Assembly: GCF_030531065.1 (NCBI RefSeq)
Contig: NZ_JAUNOQ010000006.1
Location: 89,045-153,044 of the forward strand
Direction of reading: 5' to 3'
From: Phascolarctobacterium sp.
Lineage (GTDB): Bacteria > Bacillota > Negativicutes > Acidaminococcales > Acidaminococcaceae
DNA length: 64,000 nt
The position numbers and the translations under genes were made by a program. The notes below the pieces were generated by a model. That model did not search any database. It had not been told where the DNA came from and worked only from the letters and a program-made list of their open reading frames with translations. Shown here piece by piece: positions 58,733 to 64,000 of the stretch. Numbering within the stretch: the stretch's first letter is position 1; every line of letters begins with the position of its first letter.

Positions 58733-59827
58733 ATGAAAAAATGGGTTGGTTTGTGCGCGGGCGCGTTATTAATGTGCAATACTGCCTTGGCACAAGTAAC
58801 TACGGTGGACGGCGTAGGCGTTGATAAGGACAGCGCGGTGCGCGACGCTATGCGCAACGCGGTAGAAAATGTCGTCGGAACTTTTCTTGATTCGCGCACT
58901 TTGGTAAGCAAATCCGTAGTGGCGTTAGATGAAATTTACGCGAAATCCCAAGGATTTGTGAAAAATATCAAGGTATTGAGCGAAGCGCAGGATAGCTATG
59001 GCTATAGGGTAACTGCGCAGATAGACGTGGATACGAATCCTGATTCGCAGCTTTTAGATAGATTGAATATGATTATGCTGCTTAACGATCCGAGAATTGC
59101 TGTAGTTGTGGGTTATCATAATAATTATGGGTATAACGACCAAAAAGAAAAATATCCAATGCTCTGCGAAGCTTCTATGAATAGTAAGCTTATTTCCTTG
59201 GGATTTAATCATGTTTTGGATTCCAGTAATGTGCGTAATGAAAACGGTATTATAGATTACAAAAATAATATTACAGACTATATGGTTTTAGGCTTGTTGG
59301 ACATTGAAACAAAAGACGTTATTTTACCTAGCTATAGTAGTTATACACAAGAGGGAGAATATGATAGAAGTGTTGAAACCGGTTTAGTACGTTCTTTAGC
59401 AGAAATAGATATTAAAGTTATAAAAACAGATACGCAAGAAGTAATAGGCGAATTTCACGCGGAAGCAGATGCTATAAAAAACTCTCAGAACAGCGTAGAA
59501 AATCAAGTGATTAAAGACGTAGGCATTAAGGCCGCTGAAAATTTGAGAAAGATATTTGCACAAAAAGCTTCTAATATATCCCAAACTTTGCAATTTATAG
59601 TTAGAGCAGATACATATGATGATGTTCTACGCTTTGATAAAGAACTCAGAAATGTAGCGGGTGTAAAATCTGTTAATTTGAAAGGGTATACTGACGGTAA
59701 AGCTGTCATTGAAATAGATAGCGATTTAAGACCCCAATACATTTACAGAGTATTAAAGGAAAACAGCAAACTAAATATTTTTATGGAAAAATCTACTGCT
59801 AATACTGTTGAATTATCAATAACATAA
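58733..59827 (+). CDS. Secreted FlgT-N/LPP20-like multidomain protein
   Basis: Signal peptide; G.G.D..SAVRDAMRNAVE.VVGT.LDS.T...DEIYAKSQGFV N-terminal pattern; C-terminal ferredoxin-like segment. Confidence 0.6.
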   Translation: MKKWVGLCAGALLMCNTALAQVTTVDGVGVDKDSAVRDAMRNAVENVVGTFLDSRTLVSKSVVALDEIYAKSQGFVKNIKVLSEAQDSYGYRVTAQIDVDTNPDSQLLDRLNMIMLLNDPRIAVVVGYHNNYGYNDQKEKYPMLCEASMNSKLISLGFNHVLDSSNVRNENGIIDYKNNITDYMVLGLLDIETKDVILPSYSSYTQEGEYDRSVETGLVRSLAEIDIKVIKTDTQEVIGEFHAEADAIKNSQNSVENQVIKDVGIKAAENLRKIFAQKASNISQTLQFIVRADTYDDVLRFDKELRNVAGVKSVNLKGYTDGKAVIEIDSDLRPQYIYRVLKENSKLNIFMEKSTANTVELSIT

Positions 59828-59847
59828 TTGTTTTGGGAGGAATTGAC

Positions 59848-61176
59848 ATGAATAAGCTTTTCAAATTCTTAATGGTTACGACATTATGCTTTTTTACTCA
59901 AGTATCGATTGCGGCAAATATAAAAGATTATCCTCGTGTGGCAGTAATGAATTTTGGAAACAAAGCCATTACTAGCAGTGGCTTGCGAGAACATGATTTT
60001 AGCTCCGCTTCAGAGTACGCGATTTTTCAATTGTCTAATTGCGGCTGGTTTGATTTGGTTGATTATGAACAGTTAAGCACTATTGCTAAAATGCACAGCG
60101 TTAATATGTCCGGTTTAGTGGACCCTGCTACTGCTGTTGCTATGGGTAAGTTTGCCGGAGCAGAGTTTATGGTTATTGGCAATGTAACAGGTTTAACTAC
60201 GAAAGAGAATGTTTTTGGCTATCAGCATGGCGGGAAGGGAGGATTAGCTAACGCCCAGCATGTTGTTACAGCTAATGTTGCCGTGCGGATTGTGGATATT
60301 GAAACAGGGCGCATTGTGGCGGCTGGATTAGGAAAAGGCAGTTCTACCAGCACACATACAGAATTAAGCTTTAGAAAATATCGTAATAGAAAAATTGAAA
60401 CGGAAGACATTTCAGACACGATAACTACTGACGTTATTGACGAATATACTAAAAACAGAAAAACGAGCAATAGCAGTTCTGATTCTAGAAAAGTCGACGA
60501 AAAATATAATACTAAGAAAGATGTTTCTGCTTCTGCGAGCGTAACTGAAAACGCAAATGAAAGCAGTACGCAGGAAAATGGAACGAACAGCAGCACTTCG
60601 GTAAGAGATGAAGTTACGACGAGTAAAGGGCAAACGGTTATTTCTGAAAATACTAGCGGTAAAGTTTCCAACAGCGAATTGATGGATATGGGAGGAGAAC
60701 AATCTGATTTAAAGCTGACACCGTATACGGAAGAAAATACGTCTTCTAATAGTAAAAATGATACGTTGCAGAACGACATAACTTCTGTAAATGAAACTAC
60801 TAAAACCGATTCGAAAAACACGTCTTCGACCAATGTAAAATCAAAAGATTATTCTAGTGTAACTAGCGAGAGTGTCAATAATGTAGACGAAAGTGAATTT
60901 GTTGATTCTATGGAAAGTTCTCGAAATAGCTCGGAGGATATCGACGAGACCATAAATCAAGCTAATAATCAAAACCGCGTACAGTCTACTAATAAAAGCA
61001 TTTATTATGAACGCGAAACTGAGGATTATGTGGTTACTATCGGTACGGTAGAAGTATCTGATATTCAGGTAAGGAACGCTATAAGTAAAGCTGTTCGAGA
61101 TGCAATTTATGGCAATACCGGCATTATGACAGTGCTTAATGGCGGTAAAAAATTAAAAATAAAAACAGGATTTTAA
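59848..61176 (+). CDS. CsgG/HfaB-family protein with ~220-aa Ser/Thr/Asn/Glu-rich insertion
   Basis: RVAVMNFGN, WFDLVD, SGLVDPATAVAMGKFAGAEFMVIGNVT, ANVAVRIVDIETGRIVAAG. Confidence 0.72.
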   Translation: MNKLFKFLMVTTLCFFTQVSIAANIKDYPRVAVMNFGNKAITSSGLREHDFSSASEYAIFQLSNCGWFDLVDYEQLSTIAKMHSVNMSGLVDPATAVAMGKFAGAEFMVIGNVTGLTTKENVFGYQHGGKGGLANAQHVVTANVAVRIVDIETGRIVAAGLGKGSSTSTHTELSFRKYRNRKIETEDISDTITTDVIDEYTKNRKTSNSSSDSRKVDEKYNTKKDVSASASVTENANESSTQENGTNSSTSVRDEVTTSKGQTVISENTSGKVSNSELMDMGGEQSDLKLTPYTEENTSSNSKNDTLQNDITSVNETTKTDSKNTSSTNVKSKDYSSVTSESVNNVDESEFVDSMESSRNSSEDIDETINQANNQNRVQSTNKSIYYERETEDYVVTIGTVEVSDIQVRNAISKAVRDAIYGNTGIMTVLNGGKKLKIKTGF

Positions 61177-61190
61177 TTGGAGGGGTTAAT

Positions 61191-62831: not shown

Positions 62832-62840
62832 AAGCGGGGG

Positions 62841-63677
62841 ATGAAAATGAACAAGATAACGGCTCTATTGTCTGCTTTGCTGATATGCGGAGGTATGCAA
62901 GCAAGTACAGTGTTGGCGAATGATACTCCTTCTTGCGTATTTATGAAATTTACCGACGATACACGTTTCGACAGAATTGAATCTACCGGTACGTTGTCCG
63001 ACTTGGTTATGGAAAAGTTGTTGACGAGCGGTAAATTTAATTTTAAAGAAACTAAGGTCATCGATGAAAATTTAGAAAAAAGATTATATGACGAACGCGC
63101 ACAGGAATTTGCCAACGCTCGTTGGGCTATGAATTATGGCAATTACAGCGTACTGTTTGAAGGAGCTGGCTTTAACGAGAATAAAGCTCAAACCATAGCG
63201 GCTGCGACGGTAGGACAATTTGTATCGCCTGGTATTATTGCCAGTATAGGATTGGCTAATAAGGCAGACTATTTAATTCAGGGAACAATTATCAATTTAG
63301 GAACGGGGAACTGGCTGGATAATAAAATTGCTAATATCGCTCAAGGCGCTAATACCGCTATGTCCGTAATGGGCGCTTCCGGCGCGGCTAATTTGCTGGG
63401 ACCGGTGGGGATGCTGGCAAGTAATGTGTCCGTAAAAAAGACCGGCGTAGGCGTTCAAGCTGATTTAAGGCTTATAAAGGCCGCAACGGGGGAAGTTGTA
63501 TGGCATAAATGCGTAACTGGCTCCGATACGCAAAAGCAGGTTAATGTTGGCTTCATTAAAATTGGCAGCGATAAATTAAATAACGATATGTATTATAAAG
63601 CTATGGAAGCAACCTCTCAACTAATTGCCGACGCTTTGATTAGCGATTTAGACGCTGGCAAGCTGTTCTTAAAATAA
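62841..63677 (+). CDS. CsgG/HfaB (TolB-N-like) family protein
   Basis: Signal peptide; CVFMKFTD, ADYLIQGTI.NL, VQADLRLIKAATGEVVW. Confidence 0.6.
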   Translation: MKMNKITALLSALLICGGMQASTVLANDTPSCVFMKFTDDTRFDRIESTGTLSDLVMEKLLTSGKFNFKETKVIDENLEKRLYDERAQEFANARWAMNYGNYSVLFEGAGFNENKAQTIAAATVGQFVSPGIIASIGLANKADYLIQGTIINLGTGNWLDNKIANIAQGANTAMSVMGASGAANLLGPVGMLASNVSVKKTGVGVQADLRLIKAATGEVVWHKCVTGSDTQKQVNVGFIKIGSDKLNNDMYYKAMEATSQLIADALISDLDAGKLFLK

Positions 63678-63687
63678 GGAAGAGAAT

Positions 63688-64000
63688 ATGAAAATAATTC
63701 CTTATATACTAAGCGCTTTATTGTTGGGGGTGCATGTTGTTGCTTCGGCAGCTTCGGTAGACAGAAACGCAACTGTTGCCGTTATGGATTTTGGCACTCG
63801 TCCAGGAGCGACTACTGCTGAAATCAATATTAACAATGCGGAACATACGTCTTGCGATTATATAATTACCAGATTGGTCAACCGCAATTGTTTTAATGTT
63901 ATGGAAAAAGAATTTGCCCTGAACAGCGCTAAGAACGAAGGCTTGAATATAGTAGGCTTGATAGATCCCGATACGGCTAAAAGAATAGGAGAACTACTTA
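63688..64000 (+). CDS. CsgG/HfaB-family protein, 3'-truncated by window edge
   Basis: MKIIPYILSALLLGVHVVASA signal; TVAVMDFG; F.VME; GLIDPDTAKRIGELL. Confidence 0.7.
   Translation, partial: MKIIPYILSALLLGVHVVASAASVDRNATVAVMDFGTRPGATTAEININNAEHTSCDYIITRLVNRNCFNVMEKEFALNSAKNEGLNIVGLIDPDTAKRIGELL

Follow-up and report, generated by a model that had tools for sequence, protein, structure and literature searches.

The 64,000-nucleotide stretch analysed here (the window) is taken from contig C9 of a Phascolarctobacterium genome (G000:C9:89045-153044), and the contig ends 1,940 bases past the window edge. Positions 58733-64000, 5.3 kb in all, are the opening part of a closely packed operon and hold six co-oriented plus-strand genes, P1 to P6, the last of them cut by the edge. 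With the sequence past the edge included, the operon on this contig comprises seven genes, P1 to P7 (Table 1). As neither curli nor flagellar genes accompany it, its products probably assemble into a complex that has not been described before, located at the outer membrane of two-membraned Firmicutes. The gaps between successive genes from P1 to P6 are 5, 14, 15, 9, and 10 bp, P7 follows P6 after 4 bp, and every product from P1 to P6 carries a leader of the signal peptidase I type. The GC content is 38.6%, compared with 49.6% for the genome and 53.9% for the pheT/ldh core genes just upstream, and among 6.2-kb windows of the genome, only 5% have a GC content as low. An initial annotation, made from the letters of the window, had described at least six co-oriented, tightly spaced genes with signal peptides, set in a block richer in AT than the core genes, divergent from an XRE regulator, and carried by a diderm Firmicute; each of these features is borne out, the host being Phascolarctobacterium.

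Table 1. Coordinates of the operon genes, their probable continuation, and associated features. Positions are those of the window unless a locus is named; L001 is the stretch that reads past the window edge, and window position = L001 position + 56955.
Feature	Position	Strand	Evidence and remarks
P1, exported FlgT-like protein, 364 aa	58733-59827	+	FlgP/LPP20-type SHS2 N-terminal domain, CsgG/LpoB-type centre, C-terminal domain of ~80 aa
P2, exported CsgG-family protein, 447 aa	59833 (or ATG 59848)-61176	+	CsgG E 2.2e-13, 50.4 bits; LpoB 22.7 bits
Low-complexity insert of P2 (residues 185-396)	60385-61020	+	212 residues
P3, exported protein, predicted LolA-like open beta-barrel, 275 aa	61191-62018	+	AlphaFold2 and Foldseek; hydrophobic low-confidence lid, residues 68-90
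P4, exported protein, predicted LolA-like, distant P3 paralog, 265 aa	62034-62831	+	AlphaFold2, Foldseek, hhalign
P5, exported divergent CsgG/LpoB-like protein, 278 aa	62841-63677	+	CsgG 19.4 bits, LpoB 21.4 bits, both below cut-off
P6, exported CsgG-family protein	63688-64000	+	Cut by window edge; full gene 223 aa, ending at window-equivalent 64359
P7, SH3-M23 peptidase (wall hydrolase), 485 aa	L001 7409-8866, beyond window	+	Domain search
195-aa exported protein and 315-aa LPP20-like X1 orthologue	L037 11236-12751, end of contig C11	-	Adjoin glyQS
Candidate sigma-70-type promoter	58552-58580 (L001 1597-1625)	+	TTGATA-17-TATAAT; 11/12 consensus match only; ~150 nt upstream of P1
XRE-family HTH_3 regulator gene	58147-58485	-	HTH_3 E 2.7e-8; divergent from P1
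AAA_14/DUF4143 ATPase gene	56650-57978	+	Just upstream of XRE gene
Paralog of AAA_14/DUF4143 ATPase	L038 12670-13896, contig C10		
Second locus, five co-oriented genes	L038 5936-11139 (G000:C10, ~115.9-121.1 kb)		Products of 354, 372, 387, 309, and 308 aa

The N-terminal domain of P1 is an SHS2 domain of the FlgP/LPP20/FlgT-N type, and domains of this type form rings in flagellar outer disks. The P1 family profile matches FlgP of Campylobacter jejuni (chain 9hmf_C) at E 2e-5, with residues 30-103 of P1 aligned without gaps to FlgP residues 89-162 through a helix, a beta-hairpin insert, and a strand; according to the structure paper, the hairpin insert of FlgP correlates with ring formation (PMC12222027). 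The middle of P1 (residues 147-277) matches the P6 family in profile-profile comparison (hhalign 88%, E 2.8e-6), so that P1 has its N and M domains in the same order as Vibrio FlgT. A paralog in another genome, G102, adds a weak FlgT_C match. P1 is also related (hhalign 91%) to an LPP20-like protein, X1, of ∼305 aa across loci, which has a FlgP-type domain with the hairpin insert and whose gene adjoins the cluster in ∼20 loci. The Pfam FlgT_N and LPP20 matches lie below their cut-offs.

Three of the products, P2, P5, and P6, are CsgG-type proteins, as judged against the curated Pfam cut-offs of 20.8 bits for CsgG (PF03783) and 22.3 bits for LpoB (PF13036), and no CsgG-family gene occurs elsewhere in the genome, the family being confined to this operon. 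Full-length P6 matches the CsgG model at 53.5 bits (E 2.5e-14) over positions 8-200 of 210. The hhalign alignment of P6 with CsgG of Escherichia coli MG1655 (E 8e-5) covers the first transmembrane hairpin. In this sequence alignment, its two hairpin segments measure 31 and ∼27 residues, compared with 32 and ∼27 in E. coli CsgG, and 6-14% of their residues are charged; the CsgG hairpin positions are those reported in the 2014 structure papers. P5 is a clear divergent paralog of P6 (hhalign 98.8%, E 1e-16, against the P6 family), with a helical insert, a long Gly/Ala-rich first hairpin, and the motifs FTDDTRF and GEVVW invariant in the family alignment. When the P5 profile was compared with solved structures, the sole match was a spurious repeat match and was discarded.

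P2 is 28% identical to P6. The match is interrupted between residue 184 and about residue 400, where the second CsgG-type hairpin carries an insert at its tip. The insert is of low complexity and rich in Ser, Thr, Asn, Glu, and Asp; Ser, Thr, and Asn together make up ∼44% of its residues, and few are hydrophobic. P2 orthologues vary in length between 223 and 571 aa, those of Selenomonadaceae (223-266 aa) lacking the insert and others having a longer one, which marks the insert as lineage-specific and variable. This position would place the insert on the outside of the cell, provided that a barrel forms.

Neither P3 nor P4 matches any Pfam or NCBIfam family, no consistent Pfam hit was obtained across 31 P4 members, and a sequence search of solved structures with P3 found nothing. 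AlphaFold2 models built with family alignments (predicted local distance difference test scores of 84.6 for P3 and 85.5 for P4) point, with moderate confidence, to a LolA-like fold for both proteins, an assignment that is new here. For P3, the best Foldseek match is LolA (8cgm, E 5e-4), followed by EPDR1 and YmcC, with template modelling (TM) scores of 0.3-0.4; for P4, the matches are LolA structures 9azz, 9c89, and 8veh at E 9e-5 to 9e-4, with a TM-score of up to 0.50, and also RseB. The best LolA matches of the two proteins have a Foldseek probability of 1.0 at TM-scores of 0.31-0.50. The two are paralogs (hhalign 93%, E 2.4e-7 over 221 columns), a relationship that BLASTP misses. All named homologues of P3 (95 homologues in total) and of P4 come from Negativicutes, and a P4 profile search of 1.84 billion representative proteins matched only 171 clusters. 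The folds proposed in the initial annotation (one FlgT/LPP20-like protein, three CsgG-like proteins, and two paralogous unknowns) hold.

The initial annotation had suggested looking beyond position 64000 for substrate or porin genes. Up to the end of the contig, which comes ∼120 bases after P7, there are none; the added sequence instead completes P6 and reveals P7, an SH3-M23 hydrolase. Two more genes, for a 195-aa exported protein that is weakly CsgG/LpoB-like (hhalign E 7e-4) and for an orthologue of X1, lie at the end of contig C11. Contig C9 probably joins C11 there, so that these genes would continue the operon, given the synteny of X1 with the cluster in ∼20 other loci. When genomes of the same genus without the cluster were checked for this join and for an empty site, the flanking genes lay near contig ends or on different contigs.

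The same gene set recurs in ∼45 loci, usually in the order P1-P2-P3-P4-P5-P6 and always in Acidaminococcaceae and Selenomonadaceae, which argues against a chance arrangement. The initial annotation had staked its reading on co-occurrence of these genes as a conserved unit, and such a unit is what the loci contain. The named records are Phascolarctobacterium, Acidaminococcaceae, Selenomonadaceae, Schwartzia, and Anaerovibrio, from gut and rumen sources. The genes P3-P4-P5 are contiguous in every locus and are duplicated in tandem as a unit in L029, L041, and L043, which suggests that their products act together. The duplicated triads at L041 6144-11247 and L029 7555-13838 are both from Selenomonadaceae. 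P1-P2 likewise moves as a pair (L006, L041, and L053). Frequent additions to the cluster include M23/SH3 hydrolases (one to three per locus), autotransporters, a tetratricopeptide repeat protein, and a CAP-domain protein, and the wall hydrolases that adjoin it in many loci differ in catalytic type (M23, CHAP, and endolysin-like). Genes for autotransporters (type V secretion) occur within the cluster or next to it at L013 13043-15304, L040 9502-10473, and L008 8056-9927; those of L013 and L040 have clear Pfam beta-domains, and the call at L008 is based only on similarity within its own genome and on the C-terminal sequence.

Within the class, the P5 family is found in 31 of 401 sampled Negativicutes genomes and in two families only, with 11 of 92 genomes in Acidaminococcaceae (including 8 of 29 Phascolarctobacterium) and 19 of 99 in Selenomonadaceae. 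A tree of concatenated P3-P4-P5 sequences requires at least two changes of family label, with genera mixed. This incongruence, together with the low GC content and the patchy occurrence, supports horizontal mobility, as the initial annotation had proposed in calling the genes horizontally acquired.

CsgG, HfaB, FlgP, and LpoB-like families are obligate lipoproteins in Proteobacteria. In the families of this operon, a lipobox was counted in 1 of 26 members for P1, 0 of 31 for P2, 4 of 48 for P5, and 0 of 38 for P6, with signal peptidase I-type sites throughout. By these predicted sites, the operon proteins are not lipidated, unlike CsgG, HfaB, and FlgP. To our knowledge, Negativicutes lack Lol, Lpp, and Pal. 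LolA and LolB have been reported absent from the class, where how, or whether, lipoproteins reach the outer membrane is an open question (PMC5007114), and the absence of LolA and LolB fits the missing lipoboxes in families that are lipidated elsewhere. The initial reading of a horizontally acquired secretion or anchoring apparatus in a diderm Firmicute stands in its folds, conserved unit, mobility, and host, while secretion or anchoring and the hetero-oligomeric rings that it proposed are predictions. To it is added that the LPP20-, CsgG-, and FlgP-type proteins appear not to be lipoproteins.

The genome used for absence searches is 99.5% complete. It contains no flagellin, no FliF, no LolA (PF03548), and no Curlin_rpt match over cut-off, which extends to the whole genome the earlier remark that the window has no curli subunit or flagellar genes. 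None of the ∼45 loci has CsgE/CsgF, curlin-repeat, or flagellar genes. A curli identity and a flagellar role were considered and rejected, the former by the lack of curlin repeats over cut-off and the latter by the lack of flagellin and FliF in the genome.

The reading preferred here, to which we give an even chance of being correct, is that of an accessory, mobile operon of Sec-exported, non-lipidated proteins that would build an ATP-independent ring or pore assembly at the outer membrane. Its building blocks would be SHS2 domains of the FlgP/LPP20/FlgT-N type (P1 and X1), alpha/beta domains of the CsgG/LpoB/FlgT-M type (the middle of P1, P2, P5, and P6), and two LolA-like half-barrels (P3 and P4), followed by the SH3-M23 wall hydrolase P7. 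From the observed folds, synteny, and gene absences, we infer the following steps. After Sec export, P6 and P2 would oligomerise and put CsgG-type beta-hairpins into the outer membrane. The resulting barrel would substitute for the lipid anchor of the Proteobacterial families, because Negativicutes lack the Lol pathway, and would hold in place a ring formed in the periplasm by X1 and the FlgT-like P1. P3-P4-P5 would be a separate sub-module in which P5 serves as the docking site for the LolA-like pair, a pair that may bind either an unfolded polypeptide or some hydrophobic ligand, and P7 may open the wall locally for assembly or may itself be cargo. The complex would work without an ATPase, as in curli, and would export or anchor surface material; the conserved unit includes no cytoplasmic or inner-membrane component and no ATPase. 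A fuller version appears doubtful: diderm Firmicutes, unable to fix proteins to their outer membrane by lipids, would have evolved a self-contained machine there that needs no ATP, in which non-lipidated CsgG barrels would serve as both pore and anchor for a FlgT/FlgP-like ring, and LolA-fold carriers would deliver unfolded or hydrophobic cargo, perhaps variable wall hydrolases directed against competitors, with a possible exit for type VII secretion in some Phascolarctobacterium succinatutens.

Several observations weigh against the preferred reading. About 92% of the sampled Negativicutes genomes are without the cluster, which is thus dispensable for the envelope itself, and no cargo gene is conserved within it. 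Among solved structures, the P6 profile reaches just LpoB (E 0.013) and PelC (E 0.087) and not CsgG, the hhalign probability of the match between P6 and E. coli CsgG is just 61%, and the TM-scores of P3 and P4 against LolA are low (0.3-0.5). Membrane insertion and the oligomeric state of the CsgG-like proteins are likewise predicted from their sequences only.

In the main rival reading, itself unlikely, the proteins would form no channel and would act only as a structural scaffold in the periplasm beneath the outer membrane, stiffening or spacing the envelope as a counterpart, independent of flagella, to the H-ring of Vibrio or the basal disk of Campylobacter. The FlgP-type domain with its ring-associated hairpin insert in P1 and X1, the FlgT-like domain order of P1, the weak FlgT_C match of the G102 paralog, and the fact that the solved structures nearest to P6 by sequence, PelC and LpoB, are both non-pores would all suit such a scaffold. 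However, P6 keeps both predicted hairpins at CsgG length and with low charge, which a soluble ring would not need, and flagellar rings have no counterpart of the LolA-like pair or of the variable hydrolases.

Less likely again is a cell-wall remodelling module, in which LpoB-like proteins would regulate or position M23 hydrolases (or synthases) in the manner of LpoB with PBP1b or of EnvC and NlpD with amidases. P2 narrowly exceeds the LpoB cut-off (22.7 vs 22.3 bits), P5 and P6 fall just under it, the best PDB match of the P6 profile is LpoB, and many loci have between one and three hydrolase genes after the cluster. Yet the CsgG matches (50-53 bits) stand far above the LpoB matches (20-23 bits), the long disordered N-terminal linker and the lipid anchor of LpoB are both absent, with no lipobox in P2, P5, or P6, and many loci, for example L033, L031, and L018, are without hydrolases; the accessory, mobile distribution is also a poor fit for a core wall function.

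An improbable alternative is a carrier pathway for hydrophobic cargo (lipoproteins, lipids, or glycolipids), in which P3 and P4 would ferry their load to a CsgG-like acceptor as a non-homologous substitute for Lol. The predicted LolA-like fold of the pair, the hydrophobic lid on P3, and the absence of LolA and LolB from Negativicutes are consistent with this pathway, whereas the presence of the cluster in just ∼8% of sampled genomes makes it no general solution, the unit includes no inner-membrane extractor or lipoprotein gene, and the fold match of P3 and P4 is weak.

An outer-membrane conduit for the Firmicute type VII secretion system (T7SSb) is very improbable and was rejected as a general role, since the adjacency is confined to P. 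succinatutens metagenome contigs, on which the cluster is followed by a CHAP hydrolase gene, two WXG100 genes, a DUF4176 gene, and a gene for an EssC-like FtsK/SpoIIIE ATPase; neither EssC nor a WXG100 match over cut-off occurs in the genome of the window, true EssC occurs in 2 of the 401 sampled Negativicutes genomes, neither of which has the P5 family, the one with a long contig (G071) has no CsgG-like gene within 20 kb of EssC, and none of the ∼45 other loci has T7SS genes. The T7SSb locus directly downstream of the cluster at L006 15212-20822 (also in L007) looks complete, and its EssC-like ATPase carries an FHA domain.

Compared with known systems, the preferred ring or pore assembly resembles most closely, in its CsgG-type part, the curli channel CsgG (type VIII secretion, E. 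coli) and HfaB of the Caulobacter holdfast. P2 and P6 pass the PF03783 cut-off, the two predicted hairpin segments of P6 match the transmembrane hairpins of E. coli CsgG in length, and the operon, like the curli system, is Sec-dependent, without an ATPase, and made up of exported proteins only. Unlike CsgG and HfaB, the proteins here have no lipobox, belong to a diderm Firmicute, and include P2 with its 212-aa low-complexity insert; three to four paralogs share one operon, and CsgE, CsgF, CsgA, CsgB, HfaA, and HfaD genes and genomic curlin repeats are absent. The SHS2 domain with a hairpin insert in P1 and X1 recalls the Vibrio H-ring (FlgT, FlgP, and FlgO) and the C. jejuni FlgP basal disk (PDB 9HMF; PMC12222027), and P1 shares its domain order with Vibrio FlgT. 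As in flagellar outer rings, the proteins are predicted to be periplasmic and associated with the outer membrane. Flagellar systems, in contrast, have no equivalent of the LolA-like pair or the hydrolases, and here the proteins are predicted to be non-lipidated, with no flagellin or FliF in the genome and no flagellar genes at the locus.

A widespread but little-studied three-gene cluster encodes a CsgG/HfaB protein, a GNA1162-like lipoprotein (DUF799), and a second lipoprotein, and in Acinetobacter baumannii it has been linked to poly-N-acetylglucosamine, Cup pili, and biofilm (bioRxiv 10.1101/2021.05.19.444899). It resembles the present operon in joining a non-curli CsgG-family protein to small exported partners with a TolB-N/LpoB-like fold, and the role of both probably lies in the surface matrix. 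The partners here are instead a LolA-like pair and FlgT/FlgP-like proteins, apparently non-lipidated and restricted to Negativicutes, and no GNA1162 family match was found in this operon, the sole weak match (E 0.002) being in a paralog from another genome. LolA, LolB, and RseB half-barrels are the best structural matches of the P3 and P4 models and share with them export, solubility, and, in P3, the hydrophobic lid. P3 and P4 differ in having no sequence-family match, in being ∼60 residues longer, in being encoded as a pair beside a CsgG-like gene, and in occurring without LolCDE genes. No paper was found on CsgG-family proteins in Negativicutes or on this operon.

The cluster thus presents Proteobacterial lipoprotein families (CsgG, HfaB, FlgP, and LpoB-like), apparently without their lipid anchors, next to two proteins of probable LolA fold in a lineage said to have none, and so bears on protein placement at the Negativicutes outer membrane, which is poorly understood. 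It would also be a clear case of the ring-forming modules known from flagellar disks and curli channels at work outside flagella and curli, with a bearing on the evolution of both. The hosts are abundant gut and rumen bacteria, among whose strains the cluster varies, and its hypervariable Ser/Thr-rich loop may be surface-exposed, so the operon could matter for adhesion, competition, and phage or host recognition.

As for control of the operon, a single strong promoter-like site falls in the 247-bp gap that separates P1 from the divergent XRE gene, and a scan of the operon sequence detected no convincing terminator inside it. In L016, L017, and L040, the loci closest to this one, an orthologue of the XRE gene adjoins P1, and the gene is probably a local regulator of the operon.

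The AT-rich stretch that holds the operon also includes the AAA_14/DUF4143 ATPase gene upstream of the XRE gene, and the product of this ATPase gene has a PADLOC match to the candidate defence family PDC-S01 (E 5.5e-150). An anti-phage defence role was considered for the operon and rejected, as none of its products has a PADLOC match and the upstream ATPase alone does. A paralog of this ATPase is encoded on contig C10, which also carries a second locus of five co-oriented genes with unknown products; this locus ends in a FlgT_N/LPP20-like protein related to X1, and one of its members is weakly P1-like.

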